From: Gemmatimonadota bacterium | Lineage (GTDB): Bacteria > Gemmatimonadota > Gemmatimonadetes > Gemmatimonadales > Gemmatimonadaceae | Assembly: GCA_016182795.1 (NCBI GenBank) | Contig: JACPFW010000026.1 | Span: 11,905-75,904, forward strand | DNA: 64,000 nucleotides | Direction: 5' to 3' | Part shown: in pieces, positions 35,645-45,834 of the stretch | Numbering within the stretch: position 1 is the first letter of the stretch | Layout: the number at the start of each line of letters is the position of its first letter | The notes under the pieces: model-generated | The model's input: only the letters and a program-made list of their open reading frames with translations | The model's database searches: none | Told to the model about the DNA's origin: nothing | Translations under genes and position numbers: made by a program

Positions 35645-38452
35645 CTACTTGATGATGTTCAGCGTGTAGGCCAAGGCGTTGACGTAGCCGATCGTGCCCG
35701 CGGCGTTGTAGCCAACCGCAATCACGTTCGTCGTATTCGTCGCCGTGAAGCCGAGCTGCGAGTACAGCGTGGCGCCGCTGATCGCGGCCGACCACGTGAA
35801 CGTACGCACCGCACCGTTGTCCGTCAGCACCGGCGTCGTCGCCGTGCCGATGAGGCGCATTTCGGTGCCCGCAGCGCCGCCGTTGTTGGCAGCCCAGAAC
35901 TCAACACGCGAGAACGGGTTGTTGTACGTGGCCGTCGGGCCCGTCGAAACAACACTGAGCGTCCCCGAAGCCGGGTTGGCCGTCGTCGCGGCAGTGGTGA
36001 CGCCGGACGAAATGTTGTTCGACGCGATGCTGTTGGTAACCGCCGGGAAGGTCGCCAGACCCGTCGGGGCGAACACGGCGAGCGCCGGCGAAACGGCCGG
36101 AGCGGCAGCCGCGGCACCCGTCACCAGCATGAGACCCTGGTTGGTCGCATTCGCTTCCACGGTGGCCAGCGGATAGAGCGTACCACCGAACTGCAGCGCA
36201 AGCGGCAGGTTGAACACCGCCGACACGGCGTAGTTCGTGTTGACGAAGGTCGCGGCATTGAAGCCGTTGACCGTCGTCGGGGTCGTGTTCGCAAAGCGGA
36301 CCGGCTGCGCCGACGGACCAACCACGAAGGTGCTAACACCACCGATCGCAGCGTAGTCGCCGGAGAACCAGTAGTTCGCGATATCGAGCGCGTCGTTCAG
36401 GAAGGCACTGCCGGTCCAGCCGATCGTCGAAACCGTGATCGGAGTGGAAACATTGCCGACCGTCAGCGCGCCGTTGTCGAGGACAATGGTACGCGCCGAA
36501 ACCGAGGCCGAGTTGCCGGCCGCGTCGAACGCCGTCGCGTTGAACGAGTAGTACGCGTCCGTCGTGAGAGCCGTAACCGCCGTCGAATACAGCGGGGCAG
36601 CCGCAACGACACCCGTCGCCGACAACACGCCAGCGGTGGTCGCAGCCGTGCCGTTCGCGTTGAGCGGGTTGTTCGTGCCCGCGCTGTTCGCCGTGCCAGC
36701 CACGCGCTGCGTGATCTGCATCGTAACCGGGGCCGTCGGGGCCATACCAGAGTTGCCGACCAGACCCGTGTCGTTCACCGTCACCACGAACTCACCAGCG
36801 ATCGTGGCCGTGCTCTTCTGCGCGTTCGCAGCAAGCGACGTCGCATCGTAGGCGATGGTCGGAGCCGCGCGGTCAACGCCGAACGGAACCGAGGCGGAGC
36901 CAGCAACCGGCAGGGCATAACCAGCCACCGCGGTCGGAGCGGCGCACGTGCCACCCGGGTTCGCCGTCTGCGTGTTACCAAGCACGTCGGCCGTGTAGAC
37001 GATACCGCAATAGCTCGCGTTCGTCGCCGAAGCGGCAAGCGTCGTCGGGTCGGCGATCGCCGCAGCCGTCTTCGCCGCAGTGTAGGTCGCACCAACGCGA
37101 ACGTTGTAGGTGATTGCGCCACCGATGCCAGCGTCAACGACCGTCGCGGCGATCGCGCCGTTCGGGTTGCCCGCCGCCGTCACGGTGTTGAGGCTCACCG
37201 CATCATTGATCCAGTTGCCGGTACGACCGTTGACCGCGAGGGCGGCGATGAGGCCGGCCGTCGGCGGAGCAACGTTGTCCCAGCGCAGGCCGGTCTGCGT
37301 GCCGATGATGCCGGCAGGCGTCGTGGCCGTGCCGGCCAGCGTCAGGTTGTCGCCGGCCGAGTTGGTCGCGGTAACGGTGACCACGTTCGGGAACGTGGTG
37401 ACGCAGCCAGCAGGCGACTGAAGGCCAGCCAGCGTGCCCGTGATCACGTAGACGTTGTCCGTCTTGGTCGTCGCGGTGCCGATAGCGCCAACTGCGCCGA
37501 CGCAGGTCGAGCCAGTCGCGGGATTGGCCGAAAGCGCGGCAGCAACCGTACCGATCGACGAGCCAGAGTACAGCACCGGAAGCGCGTTAACCGTGAGCGA
37601 GCCGTTGCCCGTCCAACGATAGCCGGTGCCGTCAACCGCCGACGTGCCACCGCTCGTCGTAATGGCAAAGCCGTCAACGTTAGCGAGCGTCAGGGTCTGC
37701 GTGACCGAGGCGCTGGCCGCCTGCGACGAACCGCTGGCGACGGTGTAAACCTTCGCCTGCAGCGTCGTGGCGCCGTTCAGCCAGGTCGGGACGCCCGTGG
37801 TGGCGTTGAACGCCGCCGTGTTGATCATGGCAACGATCTGCGGGAACGTCGTCTGCGCCGCAGCGGCCTCGTCGGCCGCATAACGGAGCGCGGCAGCCTG
37901 GGCCGCCGTGAACGTCTGCGAGTAGGCGACAACGCTTCCGAACAGCACTTCAACCTTGCTGATCGTCTGGTTGCCCGGGTTGACGTTGACCGTCACGTCG
38001 ATCGGGCCGGCGACGGCAGCCGGGTTGACCGTGCCGTTCAGGTTGCCCGAAGCGGTGATCGAGTTGATCGACACCGTCGCCGGGATCGTGGCGACCGGCG
38101 GCGACACGACGACTGTAGCGCAGCCCTTCTTGCCCGTATCAACCGTGGACGTCGCGCAAACGGCGATGCCCGGGTTGCCCGTGGCCGGAGCCGTGAAGAC
38201 ACCAGCGGACGTGATCGTGCCGGCCGAGGCCGTCCACGTCACCGTCGTCGCCAGGCCCGCGTCCGCGTTGACCGCGGCCGTGAACGTGATCGACTGACCA
38301 GTCGAGACCGTAGCCGTCGCCGGCGACACTTCGACCGAGTTGACCTTTGACTGCGTCGGCGGCGGCGTGTACTCCTGCACCGTCACCTTGTCGCCGCACG
38401 CTGCGAGCAACGCAGCGCCAACGACGAGAATCGTCTTACGAGAGAAGTTCAT
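35645..38452 (-). CDS. Large Thr/Ala/Gly/Val/Asn-rich surface lipoprotein with an N-terminal bacterial Ig-like (Big_2-type) domain; possible S-layer or adhesin protein
   Basis: ATG 38452 gives MNFSRKTILVVGAALLAACGD (lipobox). VNSVEVSPATATVSTGQSITFTAAVNADAGLATTVTWTASAGTITSAGVFTAPATG matches the Big_2 pattern. The remaining roughly 800 aa are low-complexity and beta-rich. The track start at 38647 is rejected. Confidence 0.7.
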   Translation of the reverse strand: MNFSRKTILVVGAALLAACGDKVTVQEYTPPPTQSKVNSVEVSPATATVSTGQSITFTAAVNADAGLATTVTWTASAGTITSAGVFTAPATGNPGIAVCATSTVDTGKKGCATVVVSPPVATIPATVSINSITASGNLNGTVNPAAVAGPIDVTVNVNPGNQTISKVEVLFGSVVAYSQTFTAAQAAALRYAADEAAAAQTTFPQIVAMINTAAFNATTGVPTWLNGATTLQAKVYTVASGSSQAASASVTQTLTLANVDGFAITTSGGTSAVDGTGYRWTGNGSLTVNALPVLYSGSSIGTVAAALSANPATGSTCVGAVGAIGTATTKTDNVYVITGTLAGLQSPAGCVTTFPNVVTVTATNSAGDNLTLAGTATTPAGIIGTQTGLRWDNVAPPTAGLIAALAVNGRTGNWINDAVSLNTVTAAGNPNGAIAATVVDAGIGGAITYNVRVGATYTAAKTAAAIADPTTLAASATNASYCGIVYTADVLGNTQTANPGGTCAAPTAVAGYALPVAGSASVPFGVDRAAPTIAYDATSLAANAQKSTATIAGEFVVTVNDTGLVGNSGMAPTAPVTMQITQRVAGTANSAGTNNPLNANGTAATTAGVLSATGVVAAAPLYSTAVTALTTDAYYSFNATAFDAAGNSASVSARTIVLDNGALTVGNVSTPITVSTIGWTGSAFLNDALDIANYWFSGDYAAIGGVSTFVVGPSAQPVRFANTTPTTVNGFNAATFVNTNYAVSAVFNLPLALQFGGTLYPLATVEANATNQGLMLVTGAAAAAPAVSPALAVFAPTGLATFPAVTNSIASNNISSGVTTAATTANPASGTLSVVSTGPTATYNNPFSRVEFWAANNGGAAGTEMRLIGTATTPVLTDNGAVRTFTWSAAISGATLYSQLGFTATNTTNVIAVGYNAAGTIGYVNALAYTLNIIK

Positions 38453-38792
38453 GGAACCCCCAGTGGAGTAAACTGCAAAAAACCATCGCGAAAACCTGCC
38501 CTTGCTCACGTGCAACGTCTCCATCCACGGTAAGACGTCCTGGCAAGGTAAAAACACACTGCTGGCCAATCTCGTGGAATATGACGACGGTGCGGACAAC
38601 TCGCAACCCCAATTGGGGTCGCGGCTTGGCCCGCTCCACCGACACATTTCCGTCGCCCAGACCGGCCAGCCACCCTTATAGTGGTGATCGGACCGGGAGC
38701 CAAAACCTACGACTCCCGAAAACTCCCGTCAAGCAAGTTGGCGGTAGACAGGCACAACGTAGGGACGAACAGCCTAGGCCTGGGTAACTGCT

Positions 38793-38909
38793 CGGAACGG
38801 GGAGGGGGCCGGGACTCAGGGACGGGTGAAGTGAGGGGGGACGGGCGAGGCGTTTCTCGGTCCCCCTCACGTCCCCCCTCGCCTAGTCTCGGCCCCCCTC
38901 CTCGTTCCG
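38793..38909. repeat. Copy 1 of a 117-127-bp G-tract/C-tract palindromic element (termini CGGAACGrGGAGGGGGGCCGGGACT ... AGTCyCGGCCCCCCTCCyCGTTCCG)
   Basis: cggaacggggagggggccgggact...agtctcggcccccctcctcgttccg read directly. The right arm overlaps the last 9 codons (including the stop) of rnhB. Confidence 0.9.
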
Positions 38910-39533
38910 AGCGCCGTTCGTCTCGGCGTTCCGCAGAATCCCCTCACAGAACTTGGGCCGATGATGCGCTGTCATCCCCCTCGCTCTCAGCGCACTCATA
39001 TGCACCGGCGTTCCGTACCCGGCGTTCTGCTCCCACCCGTACCCAGGGTGCCGCGCGGCGAGCGAACGCATCAGGCAATCGCGCGCCACCTTGGCCACAA
39101 TGCTCGCGCACGCAATTGAATAGATGCGCGAGTCGCCCCCCACGAAGGCACGGTGTGTCACCCCCAGCGTCTTGATGGGCTTGCCGTCCACCAGCACTTC
39201 ATCGGGATGTTCACGCAGGCGGCGCAGCGCACGGCGCATGGCGAGTGCCGTCGCCTGATAGATGTTGAGCGCCTCGATCTCGCGGACGCTTGCCGCCCCG
39301 AGCGCCACACACAACGCCGCACCGCGGATCTTCGCCGCGAGCCGTTCGCGCTGGGCGGCGCTCAGCTGCTTGGAGTCGGCGACGCCAGCGATGGCGCGGG
39401 CCTCGGGCGGCATGATGACGGCGCAAGCAAAGACGGGGCCCGCAAGCGGGCCCCGTCCGACTTCATCTACTCCGGCAATAAGCCGGGCGCCATCGGCGCG
39501 CAGCGAGCGCTCCACCGCGCTCCAGCGCGCCAT
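38883..39533 (-). CDS. rnhB: Ribonuclease HII
   Basis: IAGVDEVGRGPLAGPV...ADSKQLS...IVAKVARD...GYGT are the RNase HII catalytic motifs. The C-terminal ...ARNEEGGRD and the stop are encoded by the repeat element. Confidence 0.9.
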   Translation of the reverse strand: MARWSAVERSLRADGARLIAGVDEVGRGPLAGPVFACAVIMPPEARAIAGVADSKQLSAAQRERLAAKIRGAALCVALGAASVREIEALNIYQATALAMRRALRRLREHPDEVLVDGKPIKTLGVTHRAFVGGDSRIYSIACASIVAKVARDCLMRSLAARHPGYGWEQNAGYGTPVHMSALRARGMTAHHRPKFCEGILRNAETNGARNEEGGRD

Positions 39534-39539
39534 GCGCGA

Positions 39540-39920
39540 TTACGCCTGTTCCGCCGAGCCGGTGACCGGCACCGCGACACGCACCTTCTTTTCCTTGATG
39601 CGCGTGGCCTTGCCGGTGAGTTCGCGGAGATAGAACAGCTTGGCGCGGCGGACACGGCCGCGGCGCACGACGCTGATCGACTCGAGCATCGGCGAATGCA
39701 GCGGGAAGATGCGCTCGACGCCGACGCCGTTGCTGATCTTCCGCACGGTGAACGTGGCGCTGACGCCCGCTCCCTTGCGCGCGATCACGACGCCTTCGAA
39801 CGCCTGCACGCGCTCCTTGTCGCCTTCCTTCACCTTGACGTTCACGCGCACCGTGTCGCCGGCGCGGAACGGAGGAACTTCCTTGAGCCACTCTTTCTGC
39901 GTTTCCATGAAGACATGCAT
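39540..39920 (-). CDS. rplS: 50S ribosomal protein L19
   Basis: ...[35 protein letters not shown]...[22 protein letters not shown]...RRAKLFYLR. The start is ATG 39920 or ATG 39908. The track ORF start at 40178 translates the repeat element and is rejected. Confidence 0.9.
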
Positions 39921-40024
39921 ATGACGATTCCAGCGTGAGGAGGCGTTAGTCGAGCCTTGAAAGCTATTCGGAGCCTGGCCTATCGTCAAGCGCTGCAATT
40001 GCTTGGGGTTAGACAAAACGGCTA

Positions 40025-40141
40025 CGGAACGGGGAGGGGGGCCGGGACTAAGCGAGGGGGGACGGGAGGGGGAACGAGGTACGCCTCGCCCGTCCCACCT
40101 CACTTCACCCGTTCCTGAGTCCCGGCCCCCTCCTCGTTCCG
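40025..40141. repeat. Copy 2 of the G-tract/C-tract palindromic element, with an extra C-rich tail to about 40173
   Basis: cggaacggggaggggggccgggactaag...gagtcccggccccctcctcgttccg. It lies between the protease 3' end (40175) and the rplS start. Confidence 0.9.
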
Positions 40142-40174
40142 AGGCCTCCTCGCTCCCCGCCCGTCCCTCCTCGC

Positions 40175-41350
40175 TCAATACGCCGTGAACAGCAAGTGAT
40201 TATTCGCCGTCTTCGCGCTCGTCACTATCCCCTTGGTCGTCTCCGCGTACAGCGCGTCGCGCACCTGCTGCGCCGTCGCCGTCGGATTGCCCTGCAGATA
40301 GAGGGCGGCCACTCCGGCCACGTGCGGCGTCGCCATCGACGTGCCGCTGATGGTGTTGGTGGCCACGTCGCTCGTGTACCACGACGACGTGATACCCAGC
40401 CCCGGCGCGAACCAGTCGACGCAGTTGCCGTAGTTGGACCACGACGTCTTCCGGTCGCTGCTGTCCGTGGCACCGATGGTCATCGCCGTGCTCACGCGCG
40501 CCGGCGAGTACCGGCACGCGTCCTGCGCGACGCCCGCCTTGTTGCCGTTGCCGGCGGCGACGGCATACGCCACGCCGCTCGCGATCGAGTTGGACACGGC
40601 CTGGTCAAGCGCCGTCGACGCGCCGCCGCCAAGGCTCATGTTGGCCACCGCGGGCTTGGCGGCGTTGGCCGTCACCCAGTCGATGCCGGCGATCACCCCA
40701 GAGGTCGTGCCGCTCCCTGAGCAGTTGAGCACGCGCACGGCAACGAGGCTCACCGCCTTGGCCACGCCGTACGTCGCACCGCCCACCGTGCCGGCCACGT
40801 GCGTGCCGTGCCCGTTGCAGTCGATGCCGTTCTTGCCGTCGCCGATGGCGTCGTAGCCCACCGCCGCGCGCCCGCCGAACTCGCTGTGTGAGGTGCGAAT
40901 TCCGGTGTCGACGATGTACGCGTGCACTCCGCTGCCCGTCGCCGTGTACGTGTAGGAGCCGTCGAGCGGACGCGCGCGCTGGTCGATGCGATCGAGTCCC
41001 CACGTCGCGCCGGTCTGCGTCGTGAAGGCCGTCATCTCCTGGTCGCGCTCGACGTACGCCACCGACGGATCGCGCGCGAGGTCGGCGATCGCCGTCCCGC
41101 TGAACTCGCCGGAGAACCCCTTGAGCGCCGCGCCGTACGTGTGCGTCACACTGCCACCAAACCGCTGCGCGAGACCGACCGCCCTGCCGCGCGGATCGGC
41201 GACATCATCGGTGAAGACGACGATGTAATCAGCGCGGTCGGCAACGGACGCGACGCGAGTCCGGGCGACTGCCGATTCGGTCGGTGAGGATGCGTCGTTG
41301 GCGCAGGCGGCCGCCGCGAGCACGGCGACGGAAAGCACGATTCTCCGCAT
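40175..41350 (-). CDS. Secreted subtilisin-like serine protease (peptidase S8, proteinase K-like) with an I9 propeptide
   Basis: Lipobox/signal LAAAAC. The propeptide is YIVVF...[10 protein letters not shown]...VAYVERD. The catalytic triad contexts are YIVDTGI (Asp), GHGTHVAGT (His) and [12 protein letters not shown] (Ser). Confidence 0.9.
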
Positions 41351-41435
41351 TGGGGGGCTCCAGTGAGGGGAAATGGGAGGGGCGCGAGGGCCCTATTTTG
41401 GACACAATAGGAGACGACTGTGCGATGCACAAGAC

Positions 41436-41562
41436 CGGAACGAGGAGGGGGGCCGGGACTTGGGAACGGGCGAAGAGAGGCGGAACGGGGAGGGCGGTTA
41501 TCGCGTCCCCCTCCATCTCTCTCGGTCGTCGTTCCTTAGTCCCGGCCCCCCTCCCCGTTCCG
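41436..41562. repeat. Copy 3 of the G-tract/C-tract palindromic element
   Basis: cggaacgaggaggggggccgggact...agtcccggcccccctccccgttccg. The right arm overlaps the last 9 codons (including the stop) of trmD. Confidence 0.9.
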
Positions 41563-42204
41563 TTTCTTTGTGAGTCGTACGCCTTCACTCTTCCTCCACT
41601 TCTCAATCTCCGCATGGTGCCCACTCAGCAGCACATCCGGGACCATATGCCCGCGGAAATCGGGAGGGCGCGTGTAACTCGGCGCCGAGAGGCCGCGCCC
41701 GTAGAACGAGTCGCCACGCGCGCTGTCGTGGTCGTTCATCGCGCCGGGGAGTAGCCGCACCACGGCGTCCACAATGCACAGCGCCGCCGGCTCGCCGCCG
41801 GAGAGCACAAAGTCGCCGACGGACATTTCCTCGGTGGCCAGGTGATCGGCGACGCGCTGGTCGACATCCTTGTAATGGCCGCACAGCAGCGTGAGTTCAT
41901 CACCCGCCGCAAAACGCTCGGCGTCGGCATGCGAAAAGACCTTGCCGCGCGGCGAGAGGAGTACGATGGGCGCTTTGGCGCCAAGCGACTCGACGCACTC
42001 GAAGAACGGCCCGGGCTTCATCACCATGCCGGCGCCGCCGCCGTACGGATAGTCGTCGACGGTGCGGTGCTTGTCGTGCGTGTAGTCGCGCAGATCCACA
42101 ACATTGTACGTGACGCTGCCCGCTTCGCGCGCCTTGTCGGGAATGCTCAGCGACAGCGGCCCGGCGAAGAACTCGGGGAAGATCGTGACGATGTTGATCT
42201 TCAT
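41536..42204 (-). CDS. trmD: tRNA (guanine37-N1)-methyltransferase
   Basis: MKINIVTIFPEFF...DDYPYGGGAGMVM...LLCGHYKDVDQRV...SVGDFVLSGGE. The C-terminal ...KRNGEGGRD and the stop are encoded by the repeat element. Confidence 0.92.
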   Translation of the reverse strand: MKINIVTIFPEFFAGPLSLSIPDKAREAGSVTYNVVDLRDYTHDKHRTVDDYPYGGGAGMVMKPGPFFECVESLGAKAPIVLLSPRGKVFSHADAERFAAGDELTLLCGHYKDVDQRVADHLATEEMSVGDFVLSGGEPAALCIVDAVVRLLPGAMNDHDSARGDSFYGRGLSAPSYTRPPDFRGHMVPDVLLSGHHAEIEKWRKSEGVRLTKKRNGEGGRD

Positions 42205-42746
42205 TGGAGCAGTCCGTCGGGAACATCGAGCGTGATGACGCGCGCGTCGCGGTCGAACGCGACGACGAACGCATCGTTGAACGGCACGTCGCGCAGGCCG
42301 CGCGCGGTCTCGATCTCGAGCACGAGCCCCTGCGGCAGCTCGTACGAACCGCGCACCTCGCCGAGCGGCGCGCCCTGCGGATCGACGGCGCGCATGCCGG
42401 GGAGTTCGTGCACCCACACCTCATCATCGGCGGGCGGCTCGAGTTCATCCATCGGGACGAGCAGCGTGATGCCGCGCCACCGCTCGGCGGTGGTGCGGTC
42501 GACGACGCCTTCGAAGCGCACGAGGAGGCCGTCCTGAAAGTCGCGCGCGGTAGCGACAATCAGCTCGCGCGGAGTGCCGGACGCCGGGTCGGGGGCGAGA
42601 TCGCCAGCGGGCGTGCCCACCAAGACACGCGCGCCGGGCGCGAAGATCGCGTCCGGCGCGTCAGTCTGGAGCGCCACCACCACTTCGCCCTTGATGCCGT
42701 GGGCGCGACGAACGCGCCCGACGACGGCGGAGGAACCGCTGGTCAC
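42201..42746 (-). CDS. rimM: 16S rRNA processing protein RimM
   Basis: VGRVRRAHGIKGEVVV... is the N-terminal RimM motif, followed by a PRC-barrel-like C-terminus. It overlaps the trmD start by 4 nt. Confidence 0.85.
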   Translation of the reverse strand: MTSGSSAVVGRVRRAHGIKGEVVVALQTDAPDAIFAPGARVLVGTPAGDLAPDPASGTPRELIVATARDFQDGLLVRFEGVVDRTTAERWRGITLLVPMDELEPPADDEVWVHELPGMRAVDPQGAPLGEVRGSYELPQGLVLEIETARGLRDVPFNDAFVVAFDRDARVITLDVPDGLLQ

Positions 42747-42747
42747 G

Positions 42748-43062
42748 CTACGCGTTGGTCTCCGAGACGGGGACCGCGGAGGCGGCGAGCTTGGCGGCCA
42801 GGCGCTGCTCGTGGCGGGCCTTGAGCACGCCCGCCTTGCGTAGCAGCGAGCGGACCGTGTCGGACGGCTGGGCGCCGTTGTTGAGCCAGTAGTTGGCGCG
42901 ATCGGTGTTCAGCGTCACCGCCTTCTCGCCCGTGCGGGGCGCGTACTGGCCGATGACTTCAATGAACTTGCCGTCCCGCGGCATGCGCGAGTCGGCGACG
43001 ACGATGCGGTACATCGGGGCCTTCTTGCGGCCCGCGCGGCGGAGACGAATGCAAACGGCCAT
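42748..43062 (-). CDS. rpsP: 30S ribosomal protein S16
   Basis: [45 protein letters not shown] 43062 is preceded by GGAG. Confidence 0.92.
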
Positions 43063-43366
43063 CGGAGGTACTCCAGAAATGCGGTAAGACGCTGCCACCT
43101 GGCTCATCGCGCCACCGGAATGTCCGGAGCGCACCTGGGGCCGACCCTAAAGGGGCGGCTAGCGCAGCGAGCCAAGAAAGTTATGCGAGGCCGGCGCGGG
43201 ACTCAAGTGATAGCGAACAAAGAATTTGCTGGCCGAAGTGTTCACGAAAAGACGAGCCGATATGGGTGCCGTCGCAGATAGCGGCGTGCTCGCCCTTGCG
43301 GTGCGGTTCTTTTGGGGCAATCTTGGTGGTCCCGAATAAATACCGAAGCACACCTAGGAGGCTGGT

Positions 43367-43837
43367 ATGTCGAGCACGACGTTCATGTCCCCGGAAGCCG
43401 CGCTGGAACACTGGCAGGGTCATCGCCGCCTCACGCGGCGCGTGATCGAGGCATTTCCCGAGGACCAGCTGTTCTCGTTCTCCGTGGGCGGGATGCGCAG
43501 CTTTGGAGAGATGTGCAATGAGCTGCTCGCCATGGCGGTGCCGATGACGGAGGGCACGGTGTCTGAGGCATGGGGATCGTACACGCCCGGCAAGGCCACG
43601 TCGAAGTCAGCGCTACTCGCGGCGTGGGACGCTGACACGGCAAAACTCAGCGCGCTGTGGCCCAAGATTCCCGCCGCGCGGTTCGCCGACACGGTGACGG
43701 CGTTCGACGCGTACACGGGGAAGCTGCACGATCTCTTCCTTTACGTGATCGACAACGAGATCCACCATCGCGGGCAGGGGTACGTGTACCTGCGCGCGCT
43801 GGGCGTTGAACCGCCGCCGTTCTATGAGCGCGGCTAA
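43367..43837 (+). CDS. DinB-family (four-helix-bundle, metal-dependent) protein
   Basis: ALEHWQGHRRLT...NEIHHRGQGYVYLRALGVEPPPFY is the DinB_2-type His triad pattern. There is a strong AGGAGG upstream of the ATG. Confidence 0.7.
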   Translation: MSSTTFMSPEAALEHWQGHRRLTRRVIEAFPEDQLFSFSVGGMRSFGEMCNELLAMAVPMTEGTVSEAWGSYTPGKATSKSALLAAWDADTAKLSALWPKIPAARFADTVTAFDAYTGKLHDLFLYVIDNEIHHRGQGYVYLRALGVEPPPFYERG

Positions 43838-43867
43838 GGCGCGCTGCGCCGTGCCGGCCGCGGCGCG

Positions 43868-44503
43868 TTAGCGCCGCCGCATCGCACCCGGGTGCGCCTT
43901 CACGTACGCCGCGAAGGCGTAGCCGGTGGTCGTGCCGGGCTGAGGTTGCAGGTCGGTGAGCCCGTTGTGCATCACAACGGCAAGCTGCACCCAGTCCTTG
44001 CTGCGAAAATGCGCCTCGACGCCGAGTCCGGCGACCAGCGACAGCTCGAACGGACGGATGGCGTCGTACTCGGTGCCGCGCCCGCCATTGGTGCTCAGGC
44101 GTACACCGGCACTGGCGCCGCCGATCAGGACGGGGCGCACCCACGTGCCGACGCGGCGCGGCGCGAGCGGCGTGTACTGCAGTAGCAGCGGCACCTGCAG
44201 AAAGCCGATGGCGTAGCGCGCACCATCGTCGCCCTTCAGGTCGAAGACGGTCTGCACTTCGGCGTGAAGCGAGCGCGTGAGGGAGCGACGCGCGAACAGC
44301 CCGACGTAGGGCGACGTGCCGTTGCCGCTGGCCGACGTGAAGCCCTCAGGTTGCCCGGGGAACGACTGGGTCAGCCCGCTGGCGGCGATGCCGAGGATGG
44401 GGCCGAACTGAAGGCGCGAGGCGAAGGGAGTGGACTGCGGTGCTTGGGCGTGCAGCGCGACGGAGGAGCACAGGATGAACCCGAGTGTGATCAACCGTCG
44501 CAT
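43868..44503 (-). CDS. Outer-membrane beta-barrel protein (small porin-family barrel)
   Basis: MRRLITLGFILCSSVALHAQ is the signal. Alternating beta segments are present. ATG 44503 is preceded by GGAG and lies 11 nt after the ffh stop. Confidence 0.6.
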   Translation of the reverse strand: MRRLITLGFILCSSVALHAQAPQSTPFASRLQFGPILGIAASGLTQSFPGQPEGFTSASGNGTSPYVGLFARRSLTRSLHAEVQTVFDLKGDDGARYAIGFLQVPLLLQYTPLAPRRVGTWVRPVLIGGASAGVRLSTNGGRGTEYDAIRPFELSLVAGLGVEAHFRSKDWVQLAVVMHNGLTDLQPQPGTTTGYAFAAYVKAHPGAMRRR

Positions 44504-44514
44504 GCGCTGACTCC

Positions 44515-45834
44515 TCACCTCATTCCAGGAAACTGCGGTCGTCCCCCGCCCTTCATCGACTTCATCATCTTCTGCATGCCGCGGAACTGCTCGAGCAGCT
44601 TGTTGACTTCGCTGATCGGGCGGCCGCTGCCCTTGGCGATGCGCGCGCGGCGCGAGCCGTTGAGCAGGTCGGGCTGCTTGCGCTCTTCGAGGGTCATGCT
44701 GAGCACGATGGCCTCGAGATGCTTCATCCGCTTGGGATCGGTGTTCACCTGCTTCAGCATCTTGGCGTTGACGCCGGGGAGGAGCTTGAGGATCCCCTCC
44801 ATGGGCCCAAGGCGCTGAATCTGCTTCATGGCGGCGAGGAAATCGCCGAGGTCCATCCCTTCCTTGCGGACCTTCTTGTCGAGGCGCTTGGCCTCTTCGG
44901 CGTCGATGGCGCCCTGCGCCTTCTCCACGAGGGTGAGGACGTCGCCCTGCTGGAGAATGCGCCCGGCCATACGGTCGGGGTGGAACTCCTCGAGCGCGTC
45001 GCTCTTTTCGCCGACACCGATGTACTTGATGGGCTTCTTGGTGACGCCGTAGATGCTGAGCGCGGCGCCGCCGCGGGCGTCGCCATCCATCTTGGTGAGG
45101 ATCACGCCAGTGACGCCGAGCGCGCTGTCGAAGCCCTGCGCGATCTTCACGGCGTCCTGGCCGGTCATGCCGTCGGCGACGAGAAGGATTTCGTCGGGGC
45201 GCACGGCCTCCTTGAGGCGCGCGAGTTCGCCCATCATCTCGTCGTCGATCTGCAGTCGGCCGGCGGTATCGATGAGAACCACGCGGTCGCGCTCGCGGCG
45301 CGACTGGTCGAGTCCGGCGCGCGCGATCTTCACCACGTCCGTCGTCGAGCGGTCGGCGTAGACGGGGATGTCGAGATCCTTGCCGAGCGTCTCGAGCTGA
45401 TCGATGGCGGCGGGGCGATAGACGTCGGCGGCGATGAGGCGCACCTGGCGCCCTTCGCCCTTGAGCCTGCGCGCGAGCTTGGCGGCGGTGGTCGTCTTGC
45501 CGGAGCCCTGGAGGCCGACCATCAGCACCACGGTGGGCGGCACGGACGACAGCTTGAGCCCTTCCTTGCGCTCGCCGAGCATGGCGGTGAGTTCGTCATA
45601 GACGATCTTGACGAGCTGCTGCGCGGGCGAGACGGTGCGAATCTGTGAGACACCAACGGCCTTCTTCTCGACGCGCTCGAGGAACTCGCGCGTGAGCTGG
45701 AAGTTGACGTCGGCCTCGAGGAGGACGCGGCGGACTTCGCGGAGGCCGTCCTTGATGTCGGCTTCGGTGAGAACGCCGCGGCCGCGAAGCTTCGCGAAGG
45801 TGTTTTCGAGTTTGTCGGAGAGTTCCTGGAACAT
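44515..45834 (-). CDS. ffh: Signal recognition particle protein
   Basis: MFQELSDKLENTFAKLRGRG...GLQGSGKTTTAAKLA...DTAGRL..., followed by a Met-rich M domain (GMQKMMKSMKGG). Confidence 0.95.
   Translation of the reverse strand: MFQELSDKLENTFAKLRGRGVLTEADIKDGLREVRRVLLEADVNFQLTREFLERVEKKAVGVSQIRTVSPAQQLVKIVYDELTAMLGERKEGLKLSSVPPTVVLMVGLQGSGKTTTAAKLARRLKGEGRQVRLIAADVYRPAAIDQLETLGKDLDIPVYADRSTTDVVKIARAGLDQSRRERDRVVLIDTAGRLQIDDEMMGELARLKEAVRPDEILLVADGMTGQDAVKIAQGFDSALGVTGVILTKMDGDARGGAALSIYGVTKKPIKYIGVGEKSDALEEFHPDRMAGRILQQGDVLTLVEKAQGAIDAEEAKRLDKKVRKEGMDLGDFLAAMKQIQRLGPMEGILKLLPGVNAKMLKQVNTDPKRMKHLEAIVLSMTLEERKQPDLLNGSRRARIAKGSGRPISEVNKLLEQFRGMQKMMKSMKGGGRPQFPGMR

Follow-up and report, generated by a model that had tools for sequence, protein, structure and literature searches.

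A subtilisin-like S8 protease gene in a variable slot between trmD and rplS of Gemmatimonadaceae, flanked by genome-specific hairpin elements

In E. coli and most bacteria, the genes rpsP, rimM, trmD and rplS stand together as the trmD operon. Chromosomes are reportedly punctuated by hotspots of gene gain and loss between conserved core genes, a concept that is said to be that of Oliveira, Touchon and Rocha in 2017, and the genomes of enterobacteria and pseudomonads carry repetitive extragenic palindromic (REP) sequences, bacterial interspersed mosaic elements (BIME) and REPIN elements. These three systems are among the closest to what is found in the 64-kb stretch of contig JACPFW010000026.1 analysed here (the window, to which all coordinates refer unless a contig or locus is named), which belongs to a Gemmatimonas-like metagenome-assembled genome (MAG) of 93% completeness, G000. 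In this window a gene for a subtilisin-like protease of family S8 lies between trmD and rplS and is bracketed by two large palindromic hairpin elements. We consider it probable, with good confidence, that this is an old, widespread and ordinary chromosomal gene in a permissive slot, which has been inherited vertically within the genus and forms its own transcription unit, and that it is not a cassette bounded by repeats.

The minus-strand order in the window is rpsP, rimM, trmD, element A, the S8 open reading frame (ORF), element B, rplS, rnhB, element C and a large surface-protein gene. Four genes around the protease were identified by Pfam matches, namely rpsP for ribosomal protein S16 at 42748-43026 (Ribosomal_S16, 2.3e-24), rimM at 42201-42746 (RimM, 2e-18, and PRC_RimM, 1.7e-12), trmD at 41536-42213 (tRNA_m1G_MT, 6.3e-53) and rnhB for RNase HII at 38883-39533 (RNase_HII, 8.8e-42). 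The rplS gene for ribosomal protein L19 at 39540-39920 was identified by orthology, with 87-94% identity and a place beside rnhB in all relatives; rnhB follows rplS in G000 and in all 36 relatives examined that had an rplS match. The S8 ORF at 40175-41350 encodes a protease precursor of 391 amino acids of the S8A proteinase-K/aqualysin type. As in the E. coli operon, the order rpsP-rimM-trmD...rplS and the shared strand are kept in G000, but the adjacency of trmD and rplS is interrupted by 1.6 kb, so that a whole transcription unit foreign to the operon separates them, and rplS has its own conserved promoter-like block in the family. The preliminary description of this DNA had placed an S8 protease gene with an I9 propeptide between trmD and rplS on the same strand, with one element copy on each side. 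Gene order, coordinates and Pfam matches agree with the first statement, and the palindromes at 41436-41562 (element A) and 40025-40143 (element B) with the second, a third copy (element C, 38791-38909) being present after rnhB.

The GTDB genus comprises 19 species genomes, five of which were unscorable for the trmD-rplS interval. An S8 orthologue of 85-90% identity is found between trmD and rplS in G000, G001, G006, G008 and G017, and also in G014, where the interval runs across a contig break with about 200 nucleotides (nt) of overlap. It is single in each carrier genome and always at this locus. In seven genus genomes trmD stands directly before rplS with a spacer of about 110-260 nt, and in G010 the interval is filled by an AAA-type ATPase gene of 412 amino acids (L043:2118-3356). 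The species tree was built from concatenated Lon1, Lon2, rimM, trmD, rplS and rnhB (2318 columns); a tree of only the four flanking genes left the direction of gain and loss undecided for want of resolution, which Lon1 and Lon2 supplied. One clade of ten species contains all six S8 genomes, together with the S8-less G016 and the S8-less pair G013 and G015. At least three state changes are required, and the monophyly of the S8 carriers is rejected (approximately unbiased test, p = 0.00013). The S8 sequences of the genus form one clade (support 100), and their order, with (G014,(G000,G001)), G006, G008 and G017, matches the species tree. The simplest reading is that S8 would have been present in the ancestor of the ten-species clade and would have descended vertically with at least two losses, a direction of gain and loss that we infer from these trees.

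In G006 (L005) and G017 (L006), a remnant of about 70 nt (...VPDFGLQLPATHIASPTSEYG, followed by a stop) of the 3' end of a G010-type ATPase gene lies between trmD and S8, which shows directly that a gene has decayed in this slot.

That the protease is foreign and was acquired recently, for example from Actinomycetota, might be suspected from homologues of 60-70% identity in Gaiellaceae, Streptomyces, Micromonospora and Chloroflexota, which are interleaved with those of Gemmatimonadota in the tree. But the genus sequences are congruent with the species tree as described above, and the divergence of S8 from G000 (85-90% identity) is similar to that of its neighbours, with 89-94% for trmD, 82-85% for rnhB and 82-88% for Lon. 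The codon use is also native, and the arrangement is common to many genera. On the time-scale of the genus, recent horizontal transfer is contradicted by the congruent tree, the divergence and the codon use, and we regard it as extremely improbable, while an ancient transfer of the S8 family between phyla is possible.

The preliminary description had gone further and likened the layout to a cassette delimited by repeats. Read as mobile, such a cassette would have the two palindromes at its ends and would have carried the protease into the operon. Two element copies do flank the S8 gene, their outer ends share a perfect match of 29 nt (I6, 40024-40052 against 41535-41563), and the contigs of relatives break at such elements, all of which speaks for a cassette. 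The comparisons that had been suggested with the proposal, namely synteny in related genomes, a protease phylogeny against the species tree, and codon use, all came out against it. Five congeners, and other genera as well, hold S8 at the same site with differing or partial hairpins: in G008 and G014 the gene is flanked by other hairpin families, and G006 and G017 have no more than part of the copy on the upstream side. In other genera unrelated structures flank the gene, or none do, and in G091 no strong hairpin is found between trmD and S8, which in essence is the finding that the preliminary description had itself named as a refutation. The phylogeny is congruent within the genus, and the S8 composition is typical of the genome, with a GC content at third codon positions of 0.893 (84th percentile of the genome ORFs) and a codon-use likelihood at the 73rd percentile. 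A unit that moves would hardly be found once per genome and only at trmD-rplS, and the elements equally follow rnhB and housekeeping genes and fill the "empty" trmD-rplS spacers of four congeners. No match to a REP-associated tyrosine transposase (RAYT) was found genome-wide and no recombinase or transposase ORF among the ORFs of 36-46 kb, other transposase families not having been searched genome-wide. The trmD and S8 genes each end with a hairpin, so that the bracketing of S8 is a by-product and not the signature of a cassette. The repeat-delimited cassette is largely refuted by the same-site S8 genes with differing hairpins, the single locus and the native composition, and we hold it to be very improbable.

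The palindromes are better understood from their distribution in the genome, where they are members of a genome-wide and genome-specific family of 3'-end hairpins. Element A, a G-rich arm followed by a C-rich arm at the 3' end of trmD, was delimited by inverted repeat I5, arm-word matches and RNA folding (-102 kcal/mol, z -10.9); element B begins 31 nt past the S8 stop (inverted repeats I1 and I4; -90.4 kcal/mol, z -6.3), and element C lies at the 3' end of rnhB (I1 and I7; -91.8 kcal/mol, z -7.1). Against an expectation of 0.21, the window contains the arm word GGGGGCCGGGACT six times, a count reached in none of 100 shuffles. The family has 13 full copies in G000, of which A, B and C are the only ones in the window. 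All 13 lie outside ORFs or at ORF ends, and eleven abut the 3' end of a gene with a gap of -27 to +32 nt, mostly between co-directional genes. The elements also bracket a serine-dehydratase-like gene in G000, and contig C36 has an exonuclease gene, an element, an MBL-fold hydrolase gene and again an element. The last codons and the TAA stop of trmD lie inside element A (tail ...NGEGGRD), those of rnhB lie inside element C (tail ...NEEGGRD), and both genes end on the TAA of the arm. The MBL-fold hydrolase (G000 C36:27691-28611, outside the window) likewise ends in ...RNEEGGRD within an arm of an element, so that at least three unrelated genes receive their C-terminal codons and stop from the repeat.

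As compared to REP, BIME and REPIN elements, those of G000 are also multi-copy, intergenic and palindromic, stand mostly just past gene 3' ends between co-directional genes and form genome-specific variants. They differ in their far greater length (117-165 nt) and stability (about -90 to -100 kcal/mol), in their low copy number, and in overlapping coding 3' ends to which they give stop codons. Unlike REPINs mobilised by RAYT, they have no cognate Y1 transposase match (PF01797) in the 93% complete genome of G000, although six of 14 control genomes matched, so the absence of RAYT from G000 is probable. The hairpins stand at the same positions in congeners (after trmD, S8 and rnhB) with genome-specific sequences, and the arms of each genome, which number in the tens, are mostly of its own variant or variants. 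In other genera the large hairpins in these spacers are unrelated, or there are none. An Rfam search (E <= 1) of 38000-43500 returned only sub-threshold look-alikes of miRNA precursors at the three hairpins and no known RNA family, and our literature search found nothing on palindromic repeats in Gemmatimonadetes or on the trmD-S8-rplS arrangement. The hairpins probably act as RNA 3'-end structures, terminators or stabilisers. These giant genome-specific hairpins are more unusual objects of the locus than the protease.

Between the very close sisters G013 (C105:40952-41080) and G015 (C60:12609-12723), the orthologous trmD-rplS hairpin differs, reading GTGCAGGGGTTTGG in the former and GGGCGGGGGTTTGG in the latter, and the change is mirrored on both arms so that the pairing is preserved. 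This difference suggests concerted evolution, or replacement, of the genome-wide hairpin family.

The hairpins may have another part in the history of the slot, as substrates of recombination, since a crossover between near-identical palindromes could delete S8 or reload the slot and so explain its patchy presence. Both lineages in which S8 would have been lost independently, G016 and G013 with G015, keep exactly one element in the trmD-rplS spacer, and the outgroups G005, G007 and G009 have none. The single element of G013 resembles, by eye, the downstream element of G008 from just inside the shared left terminus onward, and in G006 and G017 the ATPase remnant is fused to a partial element. 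The same pattern would also arise if one element was ancestral and S8 came with the second or gained it later. In addition, G004 of the basal clade has one element and no sign of S8, and a chimeric junction is not demonstrable because the element sequences are genome-specific. Deletion of S8 by recombination between its two flanking hairpins is thus plausible and unproven, and we consider recombination at the hairpins a possible but unlikely explanation of the patchiness as a whole.

The reading of an ordinary gene in a permissive slot draws its widest evidence from the family. The coordinates of trmD and S8 were cross-referenced over 401 family genomes of 77 genera, and the regions were then fetched. 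One or two S8 genes follow trmD in 17 genomes of at least eleven other genera (g30, g41, g43, g46, g49, g55, g56, g64, g68, g69 and that of SMAG_U3634). The order trmD-S8-rplS-rnhB is seen in G091 (g68) and G079 (g56), and a further gene stands between S8 and rplS in G136 (g55) and G066 (g43). Two S8 genes separate trmD from rplS in G122 (g30) and in SMAG_U3634, a Gemmatimonadaceae MAG of another genus. In G321 and G274 (g64) other genes follow the two S8 genes, and the contig of G069 (g46) stops behind its second S8 gene. The S8 gene of G275 (g68) lies at a contig end, and that of G150 (g69) is inverted. A further sample of 32 genomes from 30 genera was surveyed, in which S8-positive genera were represented by another genome, so that it leans slightly against S8. 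The gap is empty (<400 nt) in 13 of them, holds S8 in two (G072 of g49 and G064 of g41) and another filler of 0.7-1.8 kb in 13, while three have no rplS within 4.6-5 kb and one has the gap cut by a contig end. The occupants include a CHRD-domain lipoprotein (G059), a separate cluster of lipoprotein-like proteins of about 200 amino acids without a Pfam match in five genera, TPR proteins, a Na/H exchanger with a TrkA-C domain, an isocitrate dehydrogenase, a SusC-like TonB-dependent receptor and an AAA ATPase, and in G021 an endonuclease III and a SWIM protein stand upstream of rplS. One filler (G020) is on the opposite strand. With at least eight kinds of occupant over about 60 Gemmatimonadaceae genomes, the trmD-rplS junction is a slot that varies throughout the family, and S8, singly or in tandem, is the occupant met most often, which other genes would replace in other lineages.

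This slot resembles the hotspots between core genes in that the same core genes bound an interval with at least eight unrelated families across related genomes and none in others. Unlike hotspots with mobile elements, its occupants are single genes of chromosomal type, mostly for exported proteins, and S8 returns as one of them in many genera. The trmD-rplS interval, in which several fillers had no Pfam match, showed no integrase, transposase, tRNA gene or prophage remnant. One could combine these features into a long-lived hotspot without an integrase, in which giant 3'-end hairpins of the genome's own serve as recombination substrates for the loading and unloading of single genes for exported proteins, and S8 has been captured or retained repeatedly, possibly through partial read-through linked to growth. 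We regard this as speculative and rather improbable.

The tandem S8 paralogues after trmD (L186 and L171 in G274, L185 in G321, L189 in G122, and L053) have their two copies in different subclades of the S8 tree. In g64 a SusC-like TonB-dependent receptor follows the tandem, which hints at a small gene cluster for protein scavenging.

On the reading that we favour, the slot would lie between two transcription units, rpsP-rimM-trmD and rplS-rnhB, and the protease would be transcribed as a third from a promoter of its own. Promoter-like boxes upstream of S8 at 41404-41432 on the minus strand, TTGTGC (41432-41427) and TATTGT (41409-41404) with a 17-nt spacer, are present in all six genus carriers in the alignment of upstream regions, followed by a GGAG ribosome-binding site at 41361-41358; the predicted unit would start from this TTGTGC-17-TATTGT promoter and end after the gene with the large hairpin. 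Upstream of rplS, the alignment of 14 genus genomes, both S8 carriers and others, revealed a conserved block (39935-40011, minus strand), which reads TAACCCCAAGCAATT..., the putative -35 box TTGACG (39989-39984), a 17-nt spacer, the putative -10 box TAGCTT (39966-39961) and then TCAAGGCTCGAC. The motif TTGAC-17-TAGCTT occurs in 13 of the 14 genomes, the fourteenth aligning with one difference in the -10 box, and in 0.2% of shuffled controls. The preliminary description had named a new rplS promoter in 39921-40024 as one of two alternatives, the other being transcription of rplS and rnhB through the protease gene and two large hairpins. A promoter there is very probable; its newness did not survive the comparison, because the block is kept regardless of the presence of S8 and the putative promoter is therefore ancestral. 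Most other Gemmatimonadaceae genera have a related conserved block upstream of rplS, as read by eye. In four of six genomes of the sister family f3, which belongs to the same order, trmD and rplS are only about 40-50 nt apart; the sequence upstream of rplS is trmD coding sequence there, and no such block was seen. Keeping its own promoter-like block, rplS would not have its transcription severed by genes inserted after trmD, and the junction could thus have become a variable spot across the family.

At rplS loci outside the genus (for example L195, L196, L203, L215 and L220), a different conserved block was noticed, CTGGCGT...TTA(C/G)(C/G)TT...GTCT, together with a motif in the 5' untranslated region, CCGGGCC...GCCCCGAGCGTCATATG, which could pair and may be an autoregulatory leader of L19.

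Functional coupling offers a different account of why S8 stands here, in that transcripts from the strong promoter of the rpsP operon would run on into S8, to an extent set by hairpin A, and so link protease output to ribosome synthesis and growth rate. S8 recurs at the junction and lies on the operon strand in 22 of 23 trmD-adjacent cases (the exception is G150), and the hairpins are without a T-run and may terminate only partially. Many unrelated genes use the same slot, though, and it is empty in 13 of the 32 sampled genomes; the inverted S8 of G150 and the opposite-strand filler of G020 do not fit the model. The S8 gene has its own conserved promoter-like boxes, and close S8 homologues lie elsewhere in at least nine family genomes. 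We find such coupling unlikely.

The S8 protein itself is best described as a routine aqualysin-like enzyme, of some biotechnological interest and, judged by its sequence, without new biology. The ORF matches Peptidase_S8 (PF00082, 8.4e-38, residues 141-374) and Inhibitor_I9 (PF05922, 4.1e-08) in Pfam, and in the PDB the keratinase 5wsl of Meiothermus (5e-117) and aqualysin I, 4dzt (1e-113). The catalytic residues D148 (DTG), H181 (HGTH) and S338 (GTSMA) and the oxyanion residue N268 (AAGN) are aligned with identical residues in both structures. Among aqualysin I of Thermus aquaticus, the Meiothermus keratinase rMtaKer and proteinase K, which belong to the proteinase-K subfamily of S8A, the first two (4dzt and 5wsl) are about 70% identical to its mature domain over about 278 residues, by our own count on the alignments. 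Like aqualysin, it has the Asp-His-Ser order and the oxyanion Asn, its four Cys align with those of the two aqualysin disulfides, and like the aqualysin/proteinase-K group it has an N-terminal I9 propeptide. Unlike aqualysin, it is without the C-terminal pro-domain and stops about two residues past the catalytic domain. A hydrophobic N-terminus runs into a lipobox-like A-A-C, of which Cys16 is kept in all six genus orthologues. In contrast to the freely secreted enzymes of the aqualysin type, this conserved Cys suggests a lipoprotein, and the product is probably exported as such, secretion and the type of signal-peptide cleavage being predicted from these N-terminal features.

Several points weigh against the reading of an old, vertically inherited gene with its own transcription unit. 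At least five subclades of the family-wide S8 tree contain trmD-adjacent copies, and Actinomycetota and Chloroflexota homologues are interleaved with them, so that a single ancient insertion with purely vertical descent is not shown; the adjacent and non-adjacent labels of this large tree are imperfect, since duplicates with short flanks were labelled non-adjacent, and the count of label changes is only indicative. For the deep history of S8, repeated capture, or paralogue turnover together with horizontal transfer, is as possible as such a single insertion; it may have been one ancient tandem array with differential loss, or repeated capture. The genomes are MAGs, and five of the genus are unscored. 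The single hairpin in both loss lineages leaves room for a role of the hairpins in deletion. A simple sigma-70 scan called no minus-strand promoter, and it missed those of S8 and rplS because their -10 boxes match only three of six positions. A terminator scan found no canonical (T-run) terminators. Both promoters are thus predicted from conservation, as is any termination at the hairpins.

These results describe one of the most conserved bacterial gene strings as split into two transcription units across a whole family, with a seam that tolerates and accumulates unrelated genes. In annotation, the protease should not be labelled an island. The locus may be useful for operon prediction in Gemmatimonadota and as a natural example of a "safe-harbour" intergenic site. 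The outcome is a useful clarification and a modest curiosity of comparative genomics, and not a new kind of system.

Two neighbouring regions showed features of their own. Downstream of element C, the stretch 38453-38790 (minus strand) has a promoter-like block, CTTGACGGGAG...17 nt...TAGGTT, then GGCTCCCGGTCCGATCACCACTAT and then a leader of about 340 nt of lower GC content ahead of the surface-protein gene. It had no Rfam match at E <= 1, is kept in most genus genomes, where it reads ...GGTGGCTGGCCGG.CTGGGCA...CCCCAATTGGGGTTGC..., and could be a structured 5' leader or a small RNA. The junction of ffh and rpsP (43063-44503) also holds extra genes, a small ORF resembling an outer-membrane barrel (43868-44518) and an oppositely oriented DinB-like ORF (43367-43837), so that more than one junction of the conserved cluster has been loosened.

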